Source of the DNA: Candidatus Omnitrophota bacterium
GTDB lineage: Bacteria > Omnitrophota > Gorgyraeia > Pluralincolimonadales > Pluralincolimonadaceae
Length of the DNA stretch: 64,000 nt
Reading direction: 5' to 3'
NCBI GenBank assembly: GCA_028716565.1
Contig: JAQUPL010000007.1
Coordinates: 10,819 to 74,818 of the forward strand
The translations under genes and the position numbers were made by a program. The notes beneath the pieces are model-generated. The model did not search any database and had not been told where the DNA came from. It saw only the letters and a program-made list of their open reading frames with translations. Shown one piece after another: positions 2,395 through 19,156 of this stretch; position 1 is the stretch's first letter; each line of letters opens with the position of its first letter.

Positions 2395-2481
2395 GCCGAA
2401 GTGGCGGAACTGGCATACGCGCTGCGTTCAGGGCGCAGTGACCGTAAGGTCTTGAGAGTTCAAATCTCTCCTTCGGCACCA
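2395..2481 (+). tRNA. tRNA-Leu (anticodon CAG), 87 nt including CCA
   Basis: 7-bp acceptor stem GCCGAAG/CTTCGGC; anticodon stem CTGCG/CGCAG with loop TTCAGGG (anticodon CAG); long variable arm; T-loop GTTCAAATC; 3' ACCA. Confidence 0.85.
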
Positions 2482-3050: not shown

Positions 3051-3530
3051 TCAGAAACCCAGATTCCTGTCCAAGCTCCTGTAATTTATCGCCTCGGAGA
3101 TGTGTTCTGCAGATATTGTCTCTGCTCCCGCGAGGTCGGCTACCGTCCTCGCAATCTTGAGCACCTTATCATAGCCCCTCGCGCTCAGGCCTAGCTCCAG
3201 GATCGCCAGTTTCAAAAGTTCGGCCGCTTCTTTATCTATGCGGCAGAATTGCTCGAGGTATTTCGGGGAGAGATGGGCATTACAGAATATACTCAGCCCT
3301 TTGTACCTTTCCCCCTGCATCTTCCTCGCCTTATCCACCCTTTCTTTTATATCCGCCGAACTTTCTCCCCTGCTCTTGTTGGAGAGCTCCTTATACCTCA
3401 ATGACGGGACTTCGAGATGTATATCTATCCTGTCCAATAGCGGGCCCGAGACTTTAGAAAGGTAACGTTGGATCGCCGGCGGCGCGCAGTGGCATTCCTT
3501 CTTCGGGTCGGTAAAATATCCGCACGGGCA
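3051..3530 (-). pseudogene. comM: comM (YifB/Mg-chelatase-like ATPase) C-terminal fragment, separated from its N-terminal part by the island
   Basis: CPCGYFTDPKKECHC ... LSARGYDKVLKIARTVADLAG ... ISAEHISEAINYRSL matches the ComM/YifB C-terminus and resumes exactly after the NPCP that ends the fragment at 18092..19156. Confidence 0.85.
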
Positions 3531-5074
3531 CCCGTGTCGCTTGAATCCACACACAAGCCTGAATCTTGAGCACGGCTGATGATTTTAGGCGGAATTTGAA
3601 TAGAATAATCGACGAAATGCTTATCAATTTTGATTTCAGAGAGCAGATTGCGAAGCAATTCCTTCCTGTCTGGCATATCTAGCTCATCAAACACCTCTTT
3701 CATATCCTGACAAAGCCCAATGGTCGAATCTATATCATAATAATCAATATCGAGACTAGTAGGCTTGTCCCTCAATACTCCCAGCCTTTTGGCTATACCC
3801 GCTTCTTCAACGTCAACTAATTGCTTCCTCTCAAGGAACTCTGACTTGGTTATATTGCCACTTTCATAAAGCTCAAAAATCCTTTGCCTTTTTGCCATAG
3901 CTTTGTCCAACTGCGCCTGTAAGACTCTTACTTGCTCCCTTGTAGCTTCCGCTCCTTTATCATTCGAGATTACTGTCTCTTCCAAGGATTTCTTCACACG
4001 GTTAGAATCAATCGAGAGATTCTTAAGATTTCCGGTTATCAAGCTCTCAAGGCTATCTGCCCTTATGGAGCTTCCGCTGCATTGGGCATTGCCTTTCTGT
4101 GTGTGACCTGAGCATTTATAATAAGCGTATTTTGCCCCGTTAGGTTTGGTATACAGCATTCCGTGCATCCGGACTCCGCACCTGCTGCAGTAAACTAATC
4201 CAGTCAAGAGGTACTTTGCATTCGCCTTGGGCGCTATCTTAGACTGCTGCCTAACGATATCTCGTACCTTGTCAAATAGTTCCCGTGTTATCAAAGGCTG
4301 GTGTGCTCCCGCCCCCCTTATGTATCTTTCCACAGGGTTGTGTCTCAATTCGCCCCTGTAAGTGTGGCTCCTCTTGTTATAAACCACTTCGCCGTAGTAA
4401 CAGGGATTCGTCAAAATCCTCCTGACGGAAGTCGGGGCCCACATTCCGCCTTTCCTTGTCTTAATCCCATCTTCGTTTAGCTTATGCGTGACATACAGGA
4501 TTGACCTGTGCTCAAGATAAAAACTGAAAATTTCCCTAACTATGTCGGCCTCCAAAGAATTCACCCTAAGAGACTTGTTCTCGGACAAAAAACCGTATGG
4601 GGCAATGCCGCCGTTATACTTTCCCTGCTCTGCCCTTGAACACATCACATCCTTGACTCGTTCTGCCGTGGTTTCCCTCTCGAACTGGGAAAAAGCGGCC
4701 CTCATTGTGGAAAACACCCTCCCTGCTGGGGTGGAAGTGTCTATGTTGCCTTCCAAGCAGACGAACATTACGTTCTTTCTTTCAAAATTCTCAGTTGTAT
4801 CCAGAAAGTCTTTCGTGTTCCTAAAGAGACGGTCTAACTTGGTACAAAGGATTACGTCAAGCCTACCTGCTTCGATATCATCCATCATCCTGATGAACTC
4901 TGGCCTATTGGTGTTCTTTGCGGAGATTCCAGCATCCTTATACATAGCCACAACAGACCAGTCTTCTTTCGAGGTGACATAGGCTTCCAAACGCTTAAGT
5001 TGCACATCTAGCGACTCGCCCCGCTCCCTCTGCATATCAGTCGAAACCCTGATATATAAGCCACATCTCATCAT
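3425..5074 (-). CDS. large serine recombinase (integrase)
   Basis: N-terminal resolvase domain with GLYIRVSTDMQ (Ser nucleophile), a recombinase domain and a zinc ribbon (CSRCGVRMHG ... YYKC). The C-terminal Arg-rich tail (about 35 aa) is encoded across the island/comM junction. Confidence 0.9.
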   Translation of the reverse strand: MMRCGLYIRVSTDMQRERGESLDVQLKRLEAYVTSKEDWSVVAMYKDAGISAKNTNRPEFIRMMDDIEAGRLDVILCTKLDRLFRNTKDFLDTTENFERKNVMFVCLEGNIDTSTPAGRVFSTMRAAFSQFERETTAERVKDVMCSRAEQGKYNGGIAPYGFLSENKSLRVNSLEADIVREIFSFYLEHRSILYVTHKLNEDGIKTRKGGMWAPTSVRRILTNPCYYGEVVYNKRSHTYRGELRHNPVERYIRGAGAHQPLITRELFDKVRDIVRQQSKIAPKANAKYLLTGLVYCSRCGVRMHGMLYTKPNGAKYAYYKCSGHTQKGNAQCSGSSIRADSLESLITGNLKNLSIDSNRVKKSLEETVISNDKGAEATREQVRVLQAQLDKAMAKRQRIFELYESGNITKSEFLERKQLVDVEEAGIAKRLGVLRDKPTSLDIDYYDIDSTIGLCQDMKEVFDELDMPDRKELLRNLLSEIKIDKHFVDYSIQIPPKIISRAQDSGLCVDSSDTGARADILPTRRRNATARRRRSNVTFLKSRARYWTG

Positions 5075-5402: not shown

Positions 5403-6101
5403 TTATGGTCTTTTATCGGAGCTTCCATCTTGGGCCCTTAATGACCTTGTCTTAATCTCATTTGCTAATCTTCCGAAAATATTCTTGCGAATTTGCGCAT
5501 CTTTAACCTCGAATTTTATTATCTCGATGAGATTAATTATATTCTGTCTCATATCCTTGGCTTTGGCTTCAATATCCACCCCTCCCGAAAACACTAATTT
5601 AAGCGCATCTTCTCCGGCAAGTCCAAACCTATCCCAAATCTCAAGCATCGTAAGGAGCTGCTGCTTAAAAATAACGAGGTACCGCTGCTGTGTGCCGTGA
5701 ATTGCTAGAAGATTCCTTGACAATCCGGTTACCTCTGAAATACTGGCCGGCTTTGTATCTGAACCTGCCCTATTCGACTCTTGCACTTGCCTTAATATGG
5801 CTATTGATGTGGCCGAGAGTTTTTCAAGCTCATTGTATTTTCTCCAGGCTTCCTCTATTTGTAAATCCAGCTGCATAGTCAGCATTATCATATGGTTAAT
5901 AATTTTATTATTGATTCTGAGGTCTTTTTTGATTTCATTTAAGACATCTTCTTTGGCCGCATTAACATAATTATAGACCTGGCTTTTATGGCAGCCTAAA
6001 GACCGAGCTATTTCCTCCACGCCCCTGCGTAGGATACAATACTGCCTGACTGCCTCTTTCTTTCGTTCCTGCCTAGTCAATTTATTTCCAATGTTTTCCA
6101 T
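5403..6101 (-). CDS. HTH-domain protein (sigma-70 region 4 / terminase-small-subunit-like N-terminus), function unknown
   Basis: 232 aa; N-terminal RQYCILRRGVEEIARSLGCHKSQVYNYV resembles an HTH, with a coiled-coil rest. No confident family. Confidence 0.4.
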   Translation of the reverse strand: MENIGNKLTRQERKKEAVRQYCILRRGVEEIARSLGCHKSQVYNYVNAAKEDVLNEIKKDLRINNKIINHMIMLTMQLDLQIEEAWRKYNELEKLSATSIAILRQVQESNRAGSDTKPASISEVTGLSRNLLAIHGTQQRYLVIFKQQLLTMLEIWDRFGLAGEDALKLVFSGGVDIEAKAKDMRQNIINLIEIIKFEVKDAQIRKNIFGRLANEIKTRSLRAQDGSSDKRP

Positions 6102-6342: not shown

Positions 6343-6648
6343 TTATTCGGCCTTCCTAACGAAATATTCGGTCTTACTCTTTTCACCCGTCCTTTTTATG
6401 CAAATGAATTCCCCGTCTGATATCTTGGCCATCTGTTTTGCTAAGGACCTTGAGCTTCTATCCCAGTATTGCTCAACGCCGTTTACTTCCAAATGATATC
6501 TGATAAGAATTGTCTTTCCGCCGTCAAAGTTATTAGGCACTTCTTCGGCATAAAGATACTTCACTTTCATTTCTTCCCCATCCGGCAAATCAAAATATTT
6601 TGACTTCGATGAGGCAAATCTTTTAAGTACTTCACTGCTGTTACCCAT
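6343..6648 (-). CDS. hypothetical protein (island cargo)
   Basis: 101-aa ORF in an AT-rich region, no recognisable motif. Confidence 0.35.
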   Translation of the reverse strand: MGNSSEVLKRFASSKSKYFDLPDGEEMKVKYLYAEEVPNNFDGGKTILIRYHLEVNGVEQYWDRSSRSLAKQMAKISDGEFICIKRTGEKSKTEYFVRKAE

Positions 6649-6997
6649 CTGTCACCTCTTCTTTCTTTTTCTTTACTTTTTCAATTAATTTTAAATAGGT
6701 TGCTGTAACCTGTTTTTCAATATCCTCCGCCACTTGGGAATTTATGGGATGGAAACAGTTTACTCTAAGACCGTTCTTCAAAATCTTGATTGGATAAGAA
6801 AGCCTGAAGCCTTTCCCGCTTAGGAGAGAATACAGCGCAATATCGCCGACATAGAAAGATTTATTTATGACGAAACTGACGAAGGCGAGTAAACCATTTC
6901 GGGGTTTAATTGGGATGATTTCTATTTCAGAGAGAATAATTTCCATTTTCTTGATTGACTCTTTCATTATCTTCAAATTAATAGTTGTATAGAACAA
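6641..6997 (-). CDS. hypothetical protein (island cargo; start probably the internal Met MKESIKK)
   Basis: 118-aa ORF whose listed start is TTG; an ATG lies 10 codons downstream. Confidence 0.35.
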   Translation of the reverse strand: MFYTTINLKIMKESIKKMEIILSEIEIIPIKPRNGLLAFVSFVINKSFYVGDIALYSLLSGKGFRLSYPIKILKNGLRVNCFHPINSQVAEDIEKQVTATYLKLIEKVKKKKEEVTDG

Positions 6998-7217: not shown

Positions 7218-8324
7218 TCAGAAGCCGGAAACACCCTTTAATTTTGCCCCTGTCACATCTGCTGTTCCTGACATAAGAGGCACGGCCTGAAACTTCCATA
7301 TGCTATTAGGTTCAAGATTATTTATACTATCTAATGCTGTGCCAACGTGGTTGCCGTCTTTATCATAAAGATTGAATTCTATTTGCACGTAAGAGTATCG
7401 CTTATTTGAATTATTTTTGACCTTGCCTGCTATGTTTTTATTTCCTACTGTGTAAGTCTTTCCACCGACACTTGCTTTATATGTAACCCAATCCCAATCC
7501 AGCACGGTAAAAGAATCGGTTTTGGGCATTGCTGGAACCACGCTTTGTTTAACGCTTGGGATAGGTTGATGTTCTATCCTGTAGTAACCTATAAGACACA
7601 TTATTACAAAAATCGCTATTGCTATGCCTACCCCTCCGGCAATCCTGAAAATGCTTTTCTTGTCGAAGCCGGATACCTTATCGAGTTCTTTACCGCTTCT
7701 CATTAAGTTCCCATATGATTTTAACCCAAAGGGCCCTTTTTGTTGCGATTGACCTGCCTGATGTTTCATACTGTTTTTCCGCCTTATATCCATAATAATG
7801 CCGATAATCATCCCGATTAAAGCAAATCCCCAGAAAGGCAGGCTAAATACTGACTGGAAAACAGATTCAGTTGGGAATAAAAAATTAAATAACAAGATGC
7901 CACCTATAAACCCTAATAGGCTATAAAAAGGAAAAAGCCCCCCTGTCTTGCCACAGTGAGGACAGGTAGTCGCATCTATACTCATCATTTTCTTACAGGA
8001 AAGGCACTGGATATATACCGCTCCCTTTTGGCCGTCATCAAATACCTCTCTGATTGTTTTTATCTGTATAGGATTTTTAGAAGCCAGTATTTCTGCCGCC
8101 TCTTCAACATTCTTGGCCTCTACGGTATCGGCGAAGCTTCCTTTCCAAGTCACCCATTCGCACTCATACTTCTTTGAGCCTGTTTTAGCCCCTTGTTTAT
8201 CAAGCATTTCTCCGCAATGCTTGCACTTAATAGCATCGTCTTGTATTTCTTCGGCACAGTAAGGACATTTTTTCATTTTAGCCCCCTTTTTCGTAAAATG
8301 AAGTATCTGTATAGATTGTATCAC
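7218..8324 (-). CDS. membrane protein with two N-terminal zinc ribbons (likely start MKKCPYC at 8276)
   Basis: [13 protein letters not shown] and CLSCKK..CPHCG ribbons, then hydrophobic helices and a C-terminal extracytoplasmic domain. No family assignment. Confidence 0.55.
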
Positions 8325-8372: not shown

Positions 8373-8588
8373 GTGGAAAACATTAATATAAGATTCGGAA
8401 ATAGGCTGAGGCAACTACGGAAGAGGAAGAAACTGACTCAGGAAAAACTTGCCGGTGCGACTGGTCTAGAATACAAATACATCCAGAGACTGGAAGGCAA
8501 GAAACCGTCGTCTCCTACCTTAAATACGTTAGAAAAACTCGCCAAAGCCTTTAACATCAGCGTATCTAAACTATTAAACTTCAAATAA
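8373..8588 (+). CDS. XRE-family HTH transcriptional regulator
   Basis: 71 aa; LRKRKKLTQEKLAGATGLEYKYIQRLEGKKPSSPTLNTLEKLAKAFNISVSKL is a classic HTH_XRE. Divergent from the zinc-ribbon membrane protein gene. Confidence 0.75.
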   Translation: MENINIRFGNRLRQLRKRKKLTQEKLAGATGLEYKYIQRLEGKKPSSPTLNTLEKLAKAFNISVSKLLNFK

Positions 8589-8590
8589 GA

Positions 8591-9514
8591 TTAGAGAACG
8601 CTTGCTTTTATTCTGTTGACTAATTTAATATGCAAATCTTCAGCATCTTTCCATAAAATATGGTTATATTGCCGAGTGTCAAAATGTAACTCATCCTTTT
8701 CGCTATCCTTACAAATCCAAATTACTTTAATTCCTAATCCTAATGCAAAACCTGCTTCAAAATAAACATTCTGTCGTTGCCCAGTAAAATCGGCTATTAG
8801 CAATCGTGATGTTTTAATTTCAGCAATAATTTCATCGCAAATTTTCTCATTATGCTCTATTAAATCAATCCTTACGGCACTCAAGCCACAATCTTCGCAA
8901 GCCTTTGCTATCGCCGCTTTGAAAATATCTTTCAAAGCGGCATCTTTAAAACTCATTGCTATAAAAACCTTTCTACTATGAATATTTGGTTCTTTAATAT
9001 GCTCGTATTCTTGCCAACCCCTGACTGTCAATCGTATTATGGAATATTGTCTACCAGCAGTAGTAAAATCTACGAAACCATTGTCTTTAAGATAGATAGC
9101 CAGGTTTTTTAATTCCTCTGGGTTTTTACAGAAAAATTTCGTGAATTCAGTAGAATACTCTACTGTGAATTCTTGTCCAATATAGTCTGAACGCCGTGCA
9201 AAATAAGATATAAGCATATCAAGTTTATCTTTAACTGCCAACCTCTTGTAATAAGCCACTTTCTCTGGAATTTGCATTATATCAGAAGACAGTAATCGCA
9301 AGATAATTCCTTGTTCGGCATTCTCTCTTATATATCCTGAAAATAGAATTTTATCTTCCTTAGATATGCTATCAATTATCTTATCGGATAATGCCTCATA
9401 TGAAACAATATAACTCACGCATAAAGGACAAGTAATCCTTTTGGCTTGACGCTCTGGCATATCGGTTATTTCTTTGGGTTGGCTACCACATATTATACAG
9501 ACTTCTTCTTGCAT
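8591..9514 (-). CDS. zinc-ribbon protein with C-terminal nucleoside 2-deoxyribosyltransferase-like (SLOG superfamily) domain
   Basis: N-terminal CIICG ... CPLC. The C-terminus KVFIAMSF ... LLIADFTGQRQNVYFEAGFALGLGIKVIWI matches the D-x-[ST]-G ... E-x-G-x-A ... GK-x-V signature of the Nuc_deoxyrib_tr / DNPH1-like fold. Confidence 0.5.
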   Translation of the reverse strand: MQEEVCIICGSQPKEITDMPERQAKRITCPLCVSYIVSYEALSDKIIDSISKEDKILFSGYIRENAEQGIILRLLSSDIMQIPEKVAYYKRLAVKDKLDMLISYFARRSDYIGQEFTVEYSTEFTKFFCKNPEELKNLAIYLKDNGFVDFTTAGRQYSIIRLTVRGWQEYEHIKEPNIHSRKVFIAMSFKDAALKDIFKAAIAKACEDCGLSAVRIDLIEHNEKICDEIIAEIKTSRLLIADFTGQRQNVYFEAGFALGLGIKVIWICKDSEKDELHFDTRQYNHILWKDAEDLHIKLVNRIKASVL

Positions 9515-9619: not shown

Positions 9620-10369
9620 CTATTCTGTTGAATTAACATCACACCTATCTATTATCCGCAATAAATAATTAGCGAAGAGTATAATCTCTGCCGCTTCATT
9701 TGGGTCACTTAAATTAACCTTGCGATGGCTTGATGGATTTTTAAACAACCCTATGCTACCAGCAAAGAGGTCAGAAGTCGCTTGTCGTTCTGCAGGAAGA
9801 GAGTCCACATCTGTCAGCCTGCCGTTGTCTGGATTGAACGCTGTTCTCATTAAGTTGACGCCTAATAAATCATCTGGTAAGCCCGCTTTTTCTCTCACCC
9901 TCACTTCAACTTCCTTATAGGCTCTAAAGACCGCCGTGTCATAGTCGCCTCGTATAAATAAGTTATAAACATTGTCAAAAAGATTACCATCTAATGCCTC
10001 TTTATGGAGTAAGTAATTTTTTTTGTAAGTGTCTAAGTCGACCTTTTTGCGATACTTGAAACCTTTCTTGGTTACATATCGCCAATCACTGCCTGACATA
10101 TTCGGGGTAGGGGCAATCATTCCCTCTTTTTCAAGCCAACACCACGCTTCCATAATCGCTTTTCCGACTTCATTTGTTTTGTCACCAGCATATCTTGAAA
10201 TGTTTTCATTTAGCGTAAAATTATGTCTATTCAGATGTCCTCTTTGCTGTTCCACGCTACCACAAAGGTAGTCCAATAGAAAAGCGGCGATTTCTTCTGG
10301 TTCAAGAAGCAACAACTCATCTGGAGGAAGTAATACGTCTTTAAGTTCGCTTGACATTCTAAACCTCAC
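9620..10369 (-). CDS. HEPN-domain protein of the Ymh (TIGR02391) family; putative toxin of a HEPN/MNT pair
   Basis: C-terminal YDTAVFRAYKEVEVRVREKAG ... GVNLMRTAF ... LFAGSIGLFKNPSSHRKV ... EAAEIILFANYLLRII fits the Ymh HEPN pattern, with an [R/K]NxxxH catalytic-type motif. Its start overlaps the MNT stop (ATGA). Confidence 0.65.
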   Translation of the reverse strand: MRFRMSSELKDVLLPPDELLLLEPEEIAAFLLDYLCGSVEQQRGHLNRHNFTLNENISRYAGDKTNEVGKAIMEAWCWLEKEGMIAPTPNMSGSDWRYVTKKGFKYRKKVDLDTYKKNYLLHKEALDGNLFDNVYNLFIRGDYDTAVFRAYKEVEVRVREKAGLPDDLLGVNLMRTAFNPDNGRLTDVDSLPAERQATSDLFAGSIGLFKNPSSHRKVNLSDPNEAAEIILFANYLLRIIDRCDVNSTE

Positions 10370-10701
10370 CCTTTTTCATAAATCACAATATTGCCGACGT
10401 CCAATCCCTTTTTAACGGTAGGGGTTTCTTCCGCATCATACCATTCCAAATCTACTTGATAATTCAACAGTTCGGTCAATTGCCCTTGCAACTTACTTCC
10501 TTGAGAGCACCAATAGCCAAATGCAGTATCCCCTTCTTTATCCTCTATTTCGATGGCTATATCAATATCGCTTGGACACCCGATTCTTCCTGCTGCGTAA
10601 GAACCGAACAGATAAATTCTTGTAATGCGTGGGTGACGAGTAACCCACTCTAAAAGTATTTTTTTTACTGAATCAATATCTGGAATTTTAATTATATTCA
10701 T
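10366..10701 (-). CDS. minimal nucleotidyltransferase (MNT, Pol-beta superfamily); putative antitoxin
   Basis: YLFGSYAAGRIGCPSDIDIAIEI is the GS-x(n)-DxD nucleotidyltransferase motif. Located immediately upstream of, and overlapping, the HEPN gene. Confidence 0.8.
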   Translation of the reverse strand: MNIIKIPDIDSVKKILLEWVTRHPRITRIYLFGSYAAGRIGCPSDIDIAIEIEDKEGDTAFGYWCSQGSKLQGQLTELLNYQVDLEWYDAEETPTVKKGLDVGNIVIYEKG

Positions 10702-10766: not shown

Positions 10767-11261
10767 TTAGTATAGAACACCTCCTCCGAAAATTGCTATA
10801 AATAATATGCCGAAGAAAAAAGACCATTGGTGTATTGGAAGGATAACTACTATGACATCATTTATTATCTTAAATCTCTTATTTGCTTTTTTAATTACAC
10901 AATCATCGTGTTTCAATATGTCCTTAACTTTAGTCTTTTTCCCTCCCCTTTCTATCTCCTCTTCGGGATTGTTATTGCTTAGACCGCTAATTTCACTTTT
11001 TGCTCTTAAATCTATTAGTTCATAATACAGGGCATCGATTCGTAATCTCACAAATATAACTCCAGTAATAATATTGAGGACTAAAAAGCCTAATCCATAA
11101 ATTAATATGGAATTCAAATATTGGGGCGTTTCAGGCTTTATGAATCTAACTGAAAAAACAATTGCTCCTGTAGATAAGCCTATCATCCATTTAGATAAAT
11201 TTATATATTCTCTATTGGTTTCTTCGACAAGTCTATTTTCTATATTATCTTCGTTATTCAT
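10767..11261 (-). CDS. small membrane protein (about 3 TM), unknown function
   Basis: Hydrophobic helices; no motif. Confidence 0.4.
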   Translation of the reverse strand: MNNEDNIENRLVEETNREYINLSKWMIGLSTGAIVFSVRFIKPETPQYLNSILIYGLGFLVLNIITGVIFVRLRIDALYYELIDLRAKSEISGLSNNNPEEEIERGGKKTKVKDILKHDDCVIKKANKRFKIINDVIVVILPIHQWSFFFGILFIAIFGGGVLY

Positions 11262-11572
11262 CGACTACTCCTTCTGCTATTTTCTTTCCACCCTTTAACC
11301 CTACCGTCCTTCATATAAAAAGTAATCGTGTCTCCCCGCTCTTTGGACGTCCAATTGCTGAAGGTAATCCATTCGTCTGTGCCTTCTTTGTGGTAGCCCA
11401 TCTGGAGGTATTCGGTATAGCCAGCCTTCGCCAAGTCCTCTTTGGGCATACCGACATAGACCACACCATATTCGGGCAGCTTCTCGGCTCTTTTGAGATA
11501 TTCTGGGTCATACTCCCTGCTAGAGCAACCAAATATAATAAATATTAGCACGACTGGAATCAGATATTTCAT
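11258..11572 (-). CDS. lipoprotein (signal peptide plus lipobox IFGCSS)
   Basis: MKYLIPVVLIFIIFGCSS lipobox; start overlaps the upstream gene stop. Confidence 0.5.
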   Translation of the reverse strand: MKYLIPVVLIFIIFGCSSREYDPEYLKRAEKLPEYGVVYVGMPKEDLAKAGYTEYLQMGYHKEGTDEWITFSNWTSKERGDTITFYMKDGRVKGWKENSRRSSR

Positions 11573-11754
11573 ATGCGTTTCTTTTTAGGTTGCCCGCCGT
11601 CAATCGAGTCAGTCAATGCCTTCAACTTGACTTGAAGGTGTTCGGGATTGCAACAGATTGCCTTTTTCAGGGTTCTGTGGGACAGGAAATAGCAGATTCT
11701 TCCGTTTTTTCTACCCCAGCCAACCAGTATCCTTTTAGATTCGCCTATTTTCAC
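11569..11754 (-). CDS. small hypothetical protein (61 aa)
   Basis: Co-directional and overlapping start/stop with neighbours; no motif. Confidence 0.3.
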   Translation of the reverse strand: MKIGESKRILVGWGRKNGRICYFLSHRTLKKAICCNPEHLQVKLKALTDSIDGGQPKKKRI

Positions 11755-11785
11755 AATACTCTCCTTTTTAAAAACTCTCGGTCGT

Positions 11786-12673
11786 TTATTTTAGAAATTT
11801 TCTTTGCTTTATTAATTGCTCTTCTTCTACTGTCCAGTTAGGTTCATAAACGTTTGGAATATCGAAATCTGTGTCCCTATCCCAGTCACCCTTCATCTCA
11901 AGTTTAATTATCTGAAAGGCTATTATAGACACCTGGTCTTCTTTACCATCAGGCAAAGGAATCTTCTGAATCGTTGGGGTTCCGATAGATGCATATTTTG
12001 ATGTGAAACTATACCAATAAGTTTTAGTGGTTGCATTTTCTTTTTCTCTATAACCCTCGTAAGCAATAACTACGTTGAAATAAATTCGTTCTGCCACAGA
12101 TGAACAATCAGCACCATAATTAAACTTTAAGTTTTCTTGCTTTGGAAATACGATAGTCGGATAGGGGTAAGAACCCAGATTGTCAATAAAATACTTCGGA
12201 GTATCAAGATTCCTTTTATCGGCACTGGTAGTTACAAAATATGAAACCTTGGTAACAACTGCTGGTATGATTCCCTCGTTCTTAAATTTAACTTCGGCTA
12301 TAACCATATAATAAGTTGAAATTTTGCCTGTTTTGGTATCAACCTCTATGCGTGGTTTAATGGAGACATTTTCAATCTCAACATATATATATGGTCTCTT
12401 ACCAAGACTTAACTCTTTTATCTGAATGTCTACGCTGTCTTTTTGTGCCAAAACCGAGTTTCTTAATATCCGTGCCTGCCAAAACATAAATCCTGCCATC
12501 AAGAATGTTGCGATAGCAAGAAATAGTGTAACTACGGTAAGGGCAAATTGAACTTGAAGATGTTTCTCATCTACCCATTTAAGGAATGTTTTCCAAATGT
12601 TCAAGTTATGCTCCATAAATAAAAAAAGCGTTATCCTACACTTCAAGCCTGACGCTTGCGACTTTTTGAGCAA
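11786..12673 (-). CDS. membrane-anchored protein with about 230-aa extracytoplasmic domain, unknown function
   Basis: One N-terminal TM helix (LFLAIATFLMAGFMFW) followed by a beta-rich domain. Confidence 0.45.
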   Translation of the reverse strand: MLKKSQASGLKCRITLFLFMEHNLNIWKTFLKWVDEKHLQVQFALTVVTLFLAIATFLMAGFMFWQARILRNSVLAQKDSVDIQIKELSLGKRPYIYVEIENVSIKPRIEVDTKTGKISTYYMVIAEVKFKNEGIIPAVVTKVSYFVTTSADKRNLDTPKYFIDNLGSYPYPTIVFPKQENLKFNYGADCSSVAERIYFNVVIAYEGYREKENATTKTYWYSFTSKYASIGTPTIQKIPLPDGKEDQVSIIAFQIIKLEMKGDWDRDTDFDIPNVYEPNWTVEEEQLIKQRKFLK

Positions 12674-12859
12674 ATTTCCACAACGTCTTTTTCCTTCGCT
12701 TACTTAGACTTTTTAATCTTTTGAACTATTGCAGTATTTTTCTGGCTTTTGGCTCTTGCTACTGACATAAACTTTCCTGTTATAGCACTTCTACCGATTT
12801 TAAATGTCTTGCCCATTCATTACCTCCTTTTGTAATGTTGCCTAATTCATATTCCTGGA

Positions 12860-13228
12860 TTAGTAAGTCTGTAGTTTGATAGTAATCAAAATAGCAATAA
12901 TAAAAACTGTCATTGATGCAACAAATAAAACAATAAATGTCCAATAAAGTCGTTCAGCCCATATTCCCCATCTGCTATTCCTAAAGTCGTAATTTTTAAT
13001 TTTCCCGTCTATCACAAGCTCATAATGCTTGGAGGAGCAGATGCTACTAACAAGATGAACACCTATTGTCAAGATAAACCCTAAAAGTGTTATTAAATAC
13101 CAACTTTGAATTCCATATTTATCACATATGATAAAAATTGATGCGAGAACGGTCAAGGAGAGGGTTATTACCCTATTGCTTATTTCTGAATTTATTTTCT
13201 TATATTCTTCAATTAACTGATTACTCAA
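12860..13228 (-). CDS. small membrane protein (3 TM), unknown
   Basis: Hydrophobic helices; TTG start overlaps the stop of a 51-aa basic ORF upstream. Confidence 0.4.
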   Translation of the reverse strand: MSNQLIEEYKKINSEISNRVITLSLTVLASIFIICDKYGIQSWYLITLLGFILTIGVHLVSSICSSKHYELVIDGKIKNYDFRNSRWGIWAERLYWTFIVLFVASMTVFIIAILITIKLQTY

Positions 13229-13380
13229 CGTGCCCTCCTCGGGGGTCTGGGTGCTGTAAATTTACCTCCCCTGCTGCTACGCCCAGACATTTTCCCACGA
13301 CATTGCCCAGTTTGTTTATCAATGTAGTATAAATAACCTTTTCGACGTTTAATCTCTTTCTTCATTATCTTTTTCTTCAT
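13225..13380 (-). CDS. possible small basic protein (51 aa; below ORF-track cutoff)
   Basis: Manual translation MKKKIMKKEIKRRKGYLYYIDKQTGQCRGKMSGRSSRGGKFTAPRPPRRAR; its stop overlaps the TTG start of 12860..13228. Confidence 0.25.
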   Translation of the reverse strand: MKKKIMKKEIKRRKGYLYYIDKQTGQCRGKMSGRSSRGGKFTAPRPPRRAR

Positions 13381-13626
13381 ACTATCTCTCCCTCAATGCC
13401 CACTATGCATCCTTATTCAATTCCTTTTTATGTTCTATAATATTATCGAGTTTGTTACTAATGTCGTTGAGGTATTTATTTGTAGAGTCGACATTGTTAA
13501 CGAGTTTTTCTATATTAAGCCCGATTAGTATTAGGGCTACAATTGCAATCACTCCTATAGCAATCATATTCACCTCATTTCTTCAATACAGTTTTAATGC
13601 CCAAGCAACTATTAATTGTTTTTTAT

Positions 13627-14061
13627 TCATTTGTCTACTTCTTGCCCACAATTAGAGCAAGCATCCTGAAATACTTTATTTTTCTCATTACAAGAAGGAC
13701 AAGTCCAATATCCATCCTTAGAAGACACCTTTAGAATTTCATTTTTCTTCAAATTCTCATTAGGTATCATATTAGCTGGAGGTTCTCGTTTATTTATCTT
13801 TTTATATTCCTTATACCAAATTATTCCTATCGCTATTGCGAGGATAACTTCGAGAGTATCTGTAAAATCACGAGATATGTCAGGGATGGAGTTAAGAAAA
13901 CTAAACAATTTTTTGAATAGCACAGCCAATACTATTACGGTTAAAAATTTTATTAAATACATTTTGGTTTCTTTAAGTTTCCTCCAGTTACAATGTTTTC
14001 CATAAAGAAATATCCCCATAAAAAATAATACAGCTGATGGGACGCTTCCAAAGTAAATCAT
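13627..14061 (-). CDS. small membrane protein with C-terminal zinc ribbon
   Basis: Two or three TM helices, then CPSCNEKNKVFQDACSNCG. Confidence 0.45.
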   Translation of the reverse strand: MIYFGSVPSAVLFFMGIFLYGKHCNWRKLKETKMYLIKFLTVIVLAVLFKKLFSFLNSIPDISRDFTDTLEVILAIAIGIIWYKEYKKINKREPPANMIPNENLKKNEILKVSSKDGYWTCPSCNEKNKVFQDACSNCGQEVDK

Positions 14062-14447
14062 TTATTGTCCTCCAGGGTCATCTTTTTACGATAATTATTC
14101 AACCTATGTCCAATTACTGCACTCATAATATAAATAGCGGAGACTAGTGATAAAATTCCCACTAATCCTCCTTTTACTGAATTCGGCTCACCGTCCTCAT
14201 TAGTTCCTAATGTCCAAGACTCGGGAATAAAAAAGAACGCTCTATCCAATCCAATATATAAGATTAACAACAATGAAATACCCGCTCCAATAATAATCGC
14301 AAAAGTGATTCTTCCTCGTCCATAACCACACTCGTCATAATCTAACCGCTCGGGCTTGAATATCAAATTCCAAACAAATATAAGAGACGACAGATAGAGA
14401 AAAATATAACACACGGTTATAGCGATATTTACAACAAGTTCCATCAT
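14058..14447 (-). CDS. small membrane protein (3 TM), unknown
   Basis: Hydrophobic; start/stop overlap with neighbours. Confidence 0.45.
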   Translation of the reverse strand: MMELVVNIAITVCYIFLYLSSLIFVWNLIFKPERLDYDECGYGRGRITFAIIIGAGISLLLILYIGLDRAFFFIPESWTLGTNEDGEPNSVKGGLVGILSLVSAIYIMSAVIGHRLNNYRKKMTLEDNK

Positions 14448-14481
14448 CCCTCCCTAAGAAGGTTGTTAAGTTAATTGAGAA

Positions 14482-14694
14482 TTAGTTTTTCTTTTCTGGA
14501 CGAAGTATGGAATTCAGTTTAACAGCAACCACGAGTCCAATCCAGCCAACGATTGCACACATCCATTGCTTTAGGAAAACTCCCCCGCCTCCCAATAATC
14601 CTGTCCCGAGCAAGTAGAGGGAAACAAAAGCAAGACCGCTAATACATATCATTAGATGTAACTCTAGGAGCTCTTTTTTCGTTGGAAGTCTCAT
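14482..14694 (-). CDS. small membrane protein (2 TM), unknown
   Basis: Hydrophobic 70-aa ORF; overlaps the next gene by 4 bp. Confidence 0.4.
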   Translation of the reverse strand: MRLPTKKELLELHLMICISGLAFVSLYLLGTGLLGGGGVFLKQWMCAIVGWIGLVVAVKLNSILRPEKKN

Positions 14695-14999
14695 CTCTTC
14701 ACCGATTTAATAAAATAAACAATAAAAATGATGCCCCCAATTAAATCTGCAATCCTCCACGCTTCTTTTCCGAAATAAAACTTCATAAATGGATTAAACA
14801 ATAAGGCAACAATCCCTAATACCCAAGCCCAGCCAAATTCCTTTTTTTGGTAAGTCAAATATGCCCCATAAGCTCCTACTCCACACACAAAGAACCTCAA
14901 TAATTGATAATACGAATACGGTAAATCTCCCAATGCTATAAATAACACTATGCCTGCAATTAAAAATATAGGATTTCTTTTCATATAAGCAAACCTCAC
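14691..14999 (-). CDS. small membrane protein (3 TM), unknown
   Basis: Hydrophobic 102-aa ORF. Confidence 0.4.
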   Translation of the reverse strand: MRFAYMKRNPIFLIAGIVLFIALGDLPYSYYQLLRFFVCGVGAYGAYLTYQKKEFGWAWVLGIVALLFNPFMKFYFGKEAWRIADLIGGIIFIVYFIKSVKR

Positions 15000-15006
15000 T
15001 TTTTAA

Positions 15007-15420
15007 CTAAATTTTAAATTGGTTTTGCCATTCTCTTGAAATATTCTTTGTTCTTGCCGAAACTATAAACATAGTTATTATGAGTAGGGGTATAATCAAT
15101 AATTCCCAATCGTTTACTCTGCCTAAAACACCAAGAACGAGGAAAATAATTAAACTAAAGCGTTTATAACCGCAAACCTTAGAACGCTGGTAGCTAACAT
15201 TAAAAATTGAAAAATATAAAGTGAATTGTATTATTATTAACACCCACACAAACCAAAGTGGAGCAGTAGCACGAATAGCATTTAACCATAACGTTACACC
15301 AATATAACCTATAAGAATACTAAGAATGCTAACAACAAACATTCTTCTCTCAATTTTCAAACCTTTTGTTTTAAGAAATTCGCTTAGATTCATTTCCCCT
15401 TCAATGTCCTTATCGCCCAA
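15007..15420 (-). CDS. small membrane protein (4 TM), unknown
   Basis: Hydrophobic 137-aa ORF. Confidence 0.4.
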   Translation of the reverse strand: MGDKDIEGEMNLSEFLKTKGLKIERRMFVVSILSILIGYIGVTLWLNAIRATAPLWFVWVLIIIQFTLYFSIFNVSYQRSKVCGYKRFSLIIFLVLGVLGRVNDWELLIIPLLIITMFIVSARTKNISREWQNQFKI

Positions 15421-18091: not shown

Positions 18092-19156
18092 TCACGGGCA
18101 GGGGTTCATCGCGGCGACGAGCATGAATTTGGCCGGGTAACTGAAATTATACGCGGCCCTCGAAACGGTGATAGTCCCGCCTTCAAGCGGCTGGCGCAAA
18201 GCCTCCAAAGCATCGCGATGGAATTCCGGGAGTTCATCCAAAAATAGCACGCCGTTATGCGCGAGGCTTATCTCCCCGGGCTTTAAAACCTTGCCTCCCC
18301 CGACAAGGCCGGCATATGAGACCGTATGGTGCGGCATGCGGAACGGGCGCCGCGAGACCAGGAAGTTCCTGCTGTCGAGCAGCCCCGAGACGCTGTGGAT
18401 CTTTGTCGTCTCGAGCATCTCCCCGAAGGATAGCCCTGGCAATATAGTTACCAGCCGCTGGGCAAGCATCGTCTTGCCGGAGCCGGGCGGGCCGATCATA
18501 AGGACGTTGTGGCCGCCGGCAGCCGCTACCTCGAGGCCGCGCTTTACGTGCCATTGCCCTTTTACGTCGCTGAAATCGATATCAGAACCGCCGGACGACG
18601 GCTTCGGCACCCCGGCAAGATCGACTTTCAGCGGTTCGATCTTCGCGTTGCCCTTCAGGAAATTCACCACTTCGCCGAGGTCTCTCGCCGGAAAGACCGA
18701 GATCCCGCTGACGATGGCCGCCTCCCTGGCGTTCTCCGACGGCAGGATAAAATCATTCCCCCCGTTCTCCGAAATACATATCGCGATAGGCAGGGCGCCG
18801 TTTATCGGCCTCAGCCTGCCATCAAGCGATAACTCGCCGCAAAATACTTTTCCGTCCACATGGCCCTGCTCCAGGTCCCCGGCGGAGACGAGCAAGCCCA
18901 ACGCTATGGCCAGGTCAAAAGAAGCCCCTTCTTTCCGCAGATCCGCCGGCGCCAGGTTTATCGTTATCTTTTTCGGATGCAATTTAAAACCGGAATTTTT
19001 TATCGCCGAGATGACCCTGTCCCTGCTTTCCCTGACCGCGGTATCCGGGAGGCCGACTATCGTAAAACCCGGCAGGCCTCCACTGGTATCCACCTCAACA
19101 TCCACTTTTTTCGCTTCTATCCCCAACACTGTCCTGCTCTCTATTTTCGCAAGCAT
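18092..19156 (-). pseudogene. comM: comM N-terminal fragment (Lon-like N domain plus AAA+ Walker A GPPGSGKT), truncated after AAMNPCP by the island
   Basis: [48 protein letters not shown] ... [14 protein letters not shown] ... [11 protein letters not shown] then stop. The continuation (CGYFTD ...) is at 3051..3530. Confidence 0.85.

Follow-up and report, generated by a model that had tools for sequence, protein, structure and literature searches.

HEPN/MNT modules, in which a HEPN protein is paired with a minimal nucleotidyltransferase (MNT), are regarded as the most abundant type of toxin–antitoxin system, and their known chemistry, the AMPylation of a tyrosine, is tied to two or three HEPN families. 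In the type VII pair HepT/MntA, the MNT holds the HEPN RNase off by oligoAMPylation; the MntA antitoxin carries the motif GSX10DXD and class I HepT toxins the motif RX4HXY, the tyrosine of which accepts the AMPs (PMC7641770). PF01934 (DUF86) and PF08780 (NTase_sub_bind), with NTP_transf_2, made up 99% of the pairs in a 2020 census of HEPN/MNT systems, in which PF05168 constitutes class II (PMC7641770). The Ymh proteins were classed as HEPN proteins with a conserved Rx4-6H motif in a 2013 census (PMC3710099, Table 1), which placed them among the ‘other families’, outside those associated with nucleotidyltransferases (PMC3710099). A Ymh-family gene that directly follows an MNT gene is described here; it was found in a stretch of 64,000 nucleotides (the window) of contig JAQUPL010000007.1, from a Candidatus Omnitrophota bacterium.

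The MNT–Ymh pair probably represents a genuine module, toxin–antitoxin-like or defensive, of a kind not yet described. There is an even chance that it is, more specifically, a mobile cassette of two genes, with an active MNT that controls an exchangeable effector in a manner analogous to type VII HepT/MntA, of which it would not be a member. HEPN–MNT modules, and Ymh as a HEPN family, were already known, and the swapping of partners by the MNT clade is of more interest than the pair in the window itself. In the literature searched, Ymh, SIR2-like and RelA/SpoT-like proteins were not found described as partners of an MNT.

The MNT and Ymh genes of the window

The two open reading frames (ORFs) are co-directional on the minus strand, and both encoded proteins are identical to NCBI-annotated proteins of a Candidatus Omnitrophica metagenome-assembled genome. 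The pair comprises the following features:

10366..10701, minus strand: MNT gene, 111 aa, ATG start (ORF and Pfam)
10561..10605, minus strand: MNT catalytic signature G33-S34-X10-D45-I-D47 (GSYAAGRIGCPSDID), an exact GSX10DXD
9620..10357, minus strand: HEPN gene of the Ymh/TIGR02391 family, 245 aa from ATG (ORF, PF09509 and TIGR02391)
9620..10369, minus strand: mechanical ORF of the same gene, 249 aa from GTG (ORF list)
10355..10372, minus strand: MNT/Ymh junction, with the TGA stop codon at 10366-10368, GGTGAGG, and ATG at 10355-10357
9995..10357, minus strand: conserved N-terminal domain of the Ymh protein, aa 5-125 (invariant residues and AlphaFold2 (AF2) model)
9650..9994, minus strand: C-terminal HEPN (Ymh) domain, aa 126-240 (PF09509 and AF2 domain model)
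9722..9742, minus strand: predicted active site K210-N-P-S-S-H215-R216, a K-x4-H-R variant of Rx4-6H

The 111-aa protein had been named an MNT with a GS..DID motif in a preliminary description of this locus, and this identification stands: the protein matches Polbeta (E 4.2e-11, 43.3 bits, cutoff 26.9) and NTP_transf_2 (E 5.3e-8, 33.6 bits, cutoff 21) in Pfam, and its signature residues G33, S34, D45 and D47 are invariant in eight members of the MNT clade. The third acidic residue is D84, in YQVDL, a region that aligns to the VDL of Shewanella MntA; with it, the set of three catalytic carboxylates (D45, D47 and D84) is complete. Among solved structures, the clade profile matches Shewanella MntA best (PDB 5yep, E 5.4e-5), and the 111-aa protein itself scores 41.4 bits against the NCBIfam MntA_antitoxin equivalog (NF047752), below the cutoff of 60. 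These scores suggest a relation to MntA at the level of the superfamily only. The clade is, as judged by its profile, small and sharply bounded: about 28 clusters, with 28 scoring at least 134 bits and the next 82 bits.

The MNT also matches the PADLOC model PDC-S09, a single-gene defence candidate. Among the matches listed for its profile in metagenomes, there were distant generic MNTs only (at most 36% identity over the full length), and no Ymh, SIR2 or RelA homologue lay beside those listed, so that no clade contexts were gained. Viral contigs gave three distant matches to the MNT and nothing closer, plasmids gave none, and PHROGs held no match for the MNT or the Ymh protein.

The Ymh gene is likely to begin at the ATG at 10357, which would place an 8-nt spacer between it and the MNT gene, because its homologues align from M5 of the 249-aa version, NCBI annotates a protein of 245 aa, and a Shine-Dalgarno-like GGTGAGG lies 6 nt 5' of this ATG (minus-strand junction sequence, AAGGGTGAGGTTTAGAATG). 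The 4-bp overlap reported earlier holds only for the mechanical GTG start, at 10367-10369. An 8-nt spacer is also in line with the 9 nt and 12 nt found in two other MNT–Ymh pairs (loci L086 and L177, described below). No terminator-like site was found by a scan of the minus strand between the MNT gene, the Ymh gene and the next gene. A promoter-like site at 10720-10691 was rejected because its -10 box falls within the MNT ORF.

The assignment of the C-terminus of the second protein to the Ymh/TIGR02391 HEPN family was borne out by its matches to PF09509 (Hypoth_Ymh; aa 126-240, E 1.4e-25, 89.9 bits, cutoff 25) and TIGR02391 (63 bits, cutoff 39.45). PF09509 was the only Pfam model matched by the protein at E<=0.1, which leaves out PF01934, PF08780 and PF05168; in PADLOC it matched Aga_HEPN (3.1e-5) and PD-Lambda-3_B (2.7e-4). 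The protein had also been described as unusually long for a HEPN protein, a claim that the family itself contradicts. A homologue search returned 564 homologues, with more than 120 clusters (90% identity) covering 94-98% of the query, and an exhaustive profile search of 1.84 billion representatives returned 1,018 Ymh proteins (50% identity clusters) at E<=1e-30, nearly all of them 230-260 aa long and matched end to end. A two-domain architecture of about 245 aa (Ymh-245) is therefore, on the evidence of these matches, normal for the Ymh family, in at least 1,000 clusters at 50% identity. One Ymh-245 member of 420 aa (P0279) has an extra C-terminal extension of about 160 aa.

The N-terminal extension of about 100 aa noted earlier is present, but it is closer to 125 aa and is conserved in the family. 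Its invariant residues are N50, Y60, E74, W76, W78, L79, T100, G103 and Y115, and it contains a conserved EAWxWLExEG block. In the AF2 model of the whole protein (pLDDT 84), this domain consists of helices and a beta-hairpin (helices 24-41 and 54-81, strands 85-87 and 96-99, helix 109-120). No Pfam model matched it at E<=0.1, and a Foldseek search with the whole model gave weak matches (E>0.4), several of them to winged-helix proteins (Stn1, MarR, GntR and ROQ). The domain may tentatively be described as winged-helix-like from the model, and could serve as a sensor or regulatory domain.

When the C-terminal domain was modelled by itself with AF2, it formed an all-helical bundle (pLDDT 92, pTM 0.87). 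The K-x4-H motif falls at the end of one of its helices (72-89 in domain numbering), the usual place of a HEPN site. Its top two Foldseek matches in the PDB were the HEPN proteins Csm6 and AbiV, both non-significant (E 0.79 and 2.2; TM-score about 0.3), and sequence searches of the PDB with the protein and with the family profile gave nothing meaningful. As the structure matches are non-significant, the models neither contradict nor clearly confirm a HEPN fold for the C-terminal half, and the fold is assigned here from the Pfam family and the 2013 census.

The predicted active site had been described as being of the RNxxxH type. The sequence KNPSSH is indeed present (aa 210-215 in the 249-aa numbering, nt 9725..9742), but it is K-x4-H and not R-x4-H. 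Among 70 Ymh-family members, K210, S214 and H215 were found in 70 of 70, and N211, P212 and R216 in 69 of 70; plasmid homologues with 34-41% identity also keep K-N-P-x-S-H-R. The Ymh subfamily thus departs from Rx4-6H, with the histidine and its position kept and the arginine replaced by an invariant lysine. Position 217, two residues after the histidine, is variable and is never tyrosine in the 70 members; the protein in the window has K217. A comparison for residues peculiar to the MNT-linked Ymh proteins gave only lineage noise.

The locus therefore resembles HepT/MntA, whose MNT is about 110-140 aa, in having a GSX10DXD MNT immediately 5' of a HEPN-superfamily gene, tightly coupled to it and in the same order. 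The order given in the preliminary description was correct, but the implied membership of the HepT/MntA type did not hold. The HEPN protein belongs to PF09509, has 245 aa in two domains and carries KNPSSHRK, with neither the arginine nor the acceptor tyrosine; the MNT falls under the NCBIfam MntA cutoff; and the Ymh HEPN family is normally solo. Membership of HepT/MntA is not supported by these comparisons in three features, namely the HEPN family, the RX4HXY signature and the MntA equivalog score. With the Ymh family of the 2013 census, the protein shares scores well over the family cutoffs and solo and restriction-modification (R-M)-linked contexts; it differs in the lysine of its subfamily, a few members of which stand behind an MNT.

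Genes downstream of the MNT clade

Gene contexts were read for nine of the approximately 28 clusters of the MNT clade. A co-directional gene lay downstream of the MNT gene in all nine, at a distance of -14 to +70 nt, and these partners were of several kinds:

Window, L086 and L177: Ymh-245 partner, after spacers of 8, 9 and 12 nt, respectively
L087, L089 and L090/91: SIR2-like partner, 351-354 aa, with GAGAS...NFD motifs and a zinc ribbon, overlapping the MNT gene by 8-14 nt (PADLOC Aga_SIR2, 1.3e-8)
L088: RelA_SpoT partner, 340 aa, 47 nt downstream (Pfam 5.4e-20; PADLOC PDC-S33)
L178-180: 252-aa partner with a faint HEPN match, 70 nt downstream
L181: S24 peptidase (Peptidase_S24) partner, 142 aa, 15 nt downstream

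The closest relative of the MNT in the window (68% identical, L086) is followed after 9 nt by a Ymh gene whose product is 61% identical to that of the window, and the two loci have no flanking gene in common beyond the pair. The third pair (L177) consists of an MNT with 61% identity, a 12-nt gap and an unmistakable Ymh N-terminus of about 66 residues, where the contig ends inside the Ymh gene; the ORF upstream of this MNT matches nothing elsewhere. A Ymh gene thus follows the MNT in three of the nine clade contexts. Relatives of the Ymh family were found at 236 places in 185,579 species genomes, and at this rarity chance cannot account for three Ymh neighbours in nine contexts.

In a rough neighbour-joining tree of the MNTs, near relatives have the same type of partner: the three SIR2-linked proteins cluster, and L086 holds the sister of the MNT in the window, but the MNT of L177, the third that is linked to Ymh, sits in a different subclade. 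No domain shared among the different partners was found by BLAST. The position of the clade in front of unrelated effectors (SIR2-like, RelA/SpoT-like and others) suggests that the MNT is the constant, regulatory part of a cassette whose effectors can be exchanged. The arrangement is similar to the PanA/NetFlax networks (PMC8832971, PMC10440598), in which one upstream partner occurs with many unrelated effectors, toxSAS (RelA/SpoT-like) among them; unlike PanA, the shared partner here is an enzyme, a Pol-beta-type MNT, and not DUF4065. NetFlax itself recovered no HEPN-MNT (PMC10440598). The partners also recall the effector modules of short prokaryotic Argonautes, the Ymh protein through Aga_HEPN (3.1e-5) and the SIR2-like partner through Aga_SIR2 (1.3e-8), a likeness at the level of domains only, with no Argonaute or APAZ gene present.

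The SIR2-type loci have common flanks: a gene for a DUF4268 protein lies upstream of the MNT gene in L089 and L090/91, and one for a PD-(D/E)XK-like NOV_C protein takes that position in L087. In these three loci, the PD-(D/E)XK-like gene (DUF4268 or NOV_C) that precedes the MNT gene often overlaps it by 4 nt. The presence of these upstream genes in the SIR2-type loci suggests that some cassettes may have three genes.

The 252-aa partner in L178 (4401-5159) has a ‘GFYNASCVLCRTISE’ helix and a ‘YRNIHSKADKIIHR’ segment that recall HEPN signatures (Pfam HEPN E 0.13). Downstream of it is a gene for a trypsin-like protease, and a type I R-M operon immediately precedes this group of genes.

Possible functions of the pair

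Under the reading of the pair as a cassette, the Ymh protein would be a two-domain predicted RNase effector, normally solo, that acts as a trigger-activated sensor-effector. In a rare lineage, a catalytically intact MNT would have come to stand upstream of it, and the two would be translated together. The likeliest role of the MNT would be that of a safety catch that keeps the effector inactive, by nucleotidylylation or by binding, and the effector would be released upon loss of the MNT or of ATP, for example during phage infection or when the element is lost. The acceptor would differ from the tyrosine of HepT; the invariant Ser214 or a conserved Tyr could take its place, or neutralisation could be by binding instead. 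The RNase activity and toxicity of the Ymh protein, its neutralisation by the MNT and the chemistry of that neutralisation are all predicted. The pair joins an intact MNT with a HEPN family in which neither the arginine nor the acceptor tyrosine is found, and the same MNT clade is coupled to SIR2-like and RelA/SpoT-like proteins. If the MNT regulates these partners, nucleotidyltransferase antitoxins would be more versatile than currently described, and the pair would show how effectors that are usually solo gain an extra layer of control.

Several observations weigh against this reading, some of them made when the pairing is viewed from the Ymh side. A survey of about 94 Ymh loci (L001-L085, five plasmid or phage loci and six viral contigs) was searched with the MNT-clade hidden Markov model (HMM), and an adjacent MNT was found in none of them; as a control, the same HMM picked up generic MNTs with about 30% identity (E-values between 1e-8 and 1e-21). 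A tblastn search with the MNT of the window likewise found nothing in 80 genome loci of Ymh homologues (39-57% identity). The closest Ymh relatives (88%, 79% and 74% identical) have no MNT, and are closer than the MNT-linked Ymh of L086. Such close solo relatives imply that the HEPN protein does not generally need an MNT and may not be constitutively toxic, and on the sequence comparisons it probably does not need one for cell survival. Of the 150 best family representatives, the eight longest were read for MNT–Ymh fusions, and none was found; the extra N-terminal sequence of these eight appears to stem from start sites called spuriously far upstream or to be unrelated. The RX4HXY signature of the HepT toxins is absent from the aligned sequences, because lysine replaces the arginine and the second residue after the histidine is never tyrosine. 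The contexts read cover only part of the clade, a single MNT fold would need to work on effectors of unrelated folds, and the S24 peptidase partner is no obvious toxin. The earlier description of a toxin–antitoxin-like pair is upheld in so far as the pair recurs (L086 and L177), while the 94 or so Ymh loci lend no support to a general dependence on an antitoxin.

The genes beside Ymh are diverse. The nearest ORFs on both sides in the 80 genome loci included no recurrent family, and encoded R-M subunits, TIR, Schlafen, PemK and housekeeping proteins. In L081 (1171-4717), the gene for the 79%-identical Ymh begins 2 nt past the stop codon of a type III restriction subunit gene (ResIII/SWI2_SNF2), with an N6_N4 methylase gene ahead of them, an arrangement that agrees with the R-M association reported for the Ymh family, and the 74%-identical Ymh lies between fumarase and RNase PH. 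In L085 (178-2158), a gap of 253 nt separates the gene for the 88%-identical Ymh from a SIR2-like gene upstream of it, whose 326-aa product shares 45% identity with the SIR2-like partners of the sister MNTs; this locus has no MNT, so the Ymh and SIR2-like effector families co-occur also without one. The idea that an upstream fragment in L085 is the C-terminus of an MNT was rejected. The plasmid copies and gp29 of Burkholderia phage KS9 are solo Ymh genes. For the Ymh-245 family, which has at least 1,000 clusters and includes members from plasmids, a temperate phage and R-M operons, these results define a two-domain architecture and an invariant K-N-P-x-S-H-R motif.

A bolder form of the cassette reading, which is possible but doubtful, is that the MNT clade is a portable enzymatic safety catch that covalently nucleotidylylates unrelated effectors (the Ymh-HEPN RNase, a SIR2 NADase, a RelA/SpoT-like pyrophosphokinase and others). 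For Ymh this would require a non-canonical acceptor, for example the invariant Ser214 beside His215. If this were true, type VII chemistry would extend beyond HepT, and the clade would be an enzymatic counterpart of the hyperpromiscuous antitoxins.

The main alternative, which builds on the Ymh-side observations, is that Ymh is an autonomous single-gene defence or abortive-infection RNase similar to Tha, in which the N-terminal domain would detect a trigger and the HEPN domain would then become active, and that the MNT is a separate defence-island gene travelling along with it. Tha, from Staphylococcus aureus prophages, is a 301-aa protein with the motif RNSIMH that is non-toxic until a phage tail protein triggers it (PMC11087260). 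It has the same layout as the solo Ymh-245 proteins, which by analogy combine an uncharacterised N-terminal region with a C-terminal HEPN domain, carry an (R/K)Nxx(x)H motif and occur on mobile elements; it differs from the Ymh protein of the window in its motif, its length and its want of an MNT partner. The lack of an adjacent MNT in the surveyed loci and in the closest relatives, the occurrence of the family in R-M operons, on plasmids, in one temperate phage and in defence islands, and the match of the MNT to the single-gene candidate PDC-S09 all point the same way. Even so, this explanation is unlikely, as the pair recurs three times with 8-12-nt spacers, with the window and L086 otherwise sharing no flanks; in all clade contexts read, the MNT gene is tightly linked to a downstream gene, which overlaps it in three cases; and independent genes would not hold their order and spacing at 61-68% protein identity.

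It is improbable that the pair is a signalling or sensor system, in which the MNT would detect infection, or would synthesise a nucleotide that switches the effector on, in a CBASS-like or guard-type manner. The conserved catalytic residues, the exchange of effectors as in signalling defence systems, and the extra non-catalytic domains of the effectors, which could bind a ligand, are consistent with such a role; against it, nucleotidyltransferases known to produce signals are far larger than this 111-aa MNT, the solved protein closest to it is MntA, an antitoxin that AMPylates protein, and no common sensor domain was detected among the partners.

It is very improbable that the two proteins form a non-toxic two-subunit nucleotidyltransferase of the kanamycin nucleotidyltransferase type, in which the HEPN-like subunit binds the substrate and has no RNase activity. 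The substitution of lysine for arginine in the Rx4-6H motif would fit, as would the fact that HEPN proteins were first seen as substrate-binding partners of MNTs, with fused versions lacking catalytic residues (PMC3710099). However, K-N-P-x-S-H-R is invariant in a family that almost always lacks an MNT, which suggests that the motif is kept for a function of its own, and the SIR2 and RelA/SpoT partners of the MNT clade are not HEPN-like.

The island and its other genes

The pair lies within a low-GC island at about 3.0-18.0 kb of the window (31-47% GC, compared with 50-57% in the flanks), which is probably an integrated mobile element that carries it. The following features mark the island and the gene next to the pair:

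2395..2481: tRNA-Leu, just outside the island, as is a YbaK-like gene
3425..5074, minus strand: large serine recombinase (Resolvase, Recombinase and Zn_ribbon_recom), at the left end of the island
8591..9514, minus strand: zinc-ribbon/TIR-like protein, 307 aa, co-directional with the Ymh gene and 105 nt downstream of it
18092..19156: ComM/Mg-chelatase-like gene, right of the island

The TIR-like protein has an N-terminal CxxC zinc ribbon and a C-terminal TIR-like or nucleoside-deoxyribosyltransferase-like domain, with matches to a PADLOC TIR effector (2.4e-11) and to Pfam Nuc_deoxyrib_tr (3.6e-4, below the cutoff). The suggestion in the preliminary description that it might be the third gene of a defence module with MNT and Ymh is highly unlikely to be correct: its orientation, its proximity, the lack of a predicted terminator in between and its effector match speak for it, but L086, the other complete pair, has DUF4238 in its place, tblastn found no trace of it in the 80 Ymh genome loci, and it belongs to a phage-borne family of its own (phrog_16139, E 1.9e-49). 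From these matches, the gene looks like a candidate phage-borne defence gene that is independent of the pair.

Next to the TIR-like gene, a plus-strand gene (8373..8588) encodes a 71-aa HTH_3 protein similar to the control-protein and capH-like regulators of PADLOC (approximately 5e-14), and an FxLYD-domain zinc-ribbon membrane protein of 368 aa (7218..8324, minus strand) is encoded divergently from it; there is a strong sigma-70-like promoter match (11/12) at 8343-8315. Directly upstream of the MNT gene, the minus strand at 10767-15420 holds about ten small ORFs, mostly for predicted membrane proteins, and those that were scanned matched no family. The island also contains a gene for a SpoVG-like protein (6641-6997, minus strand; Pfam 1.6e-8), which adjoins a 101-aa ORF and a gene for a helix-turn-helix protein (5403..6101).

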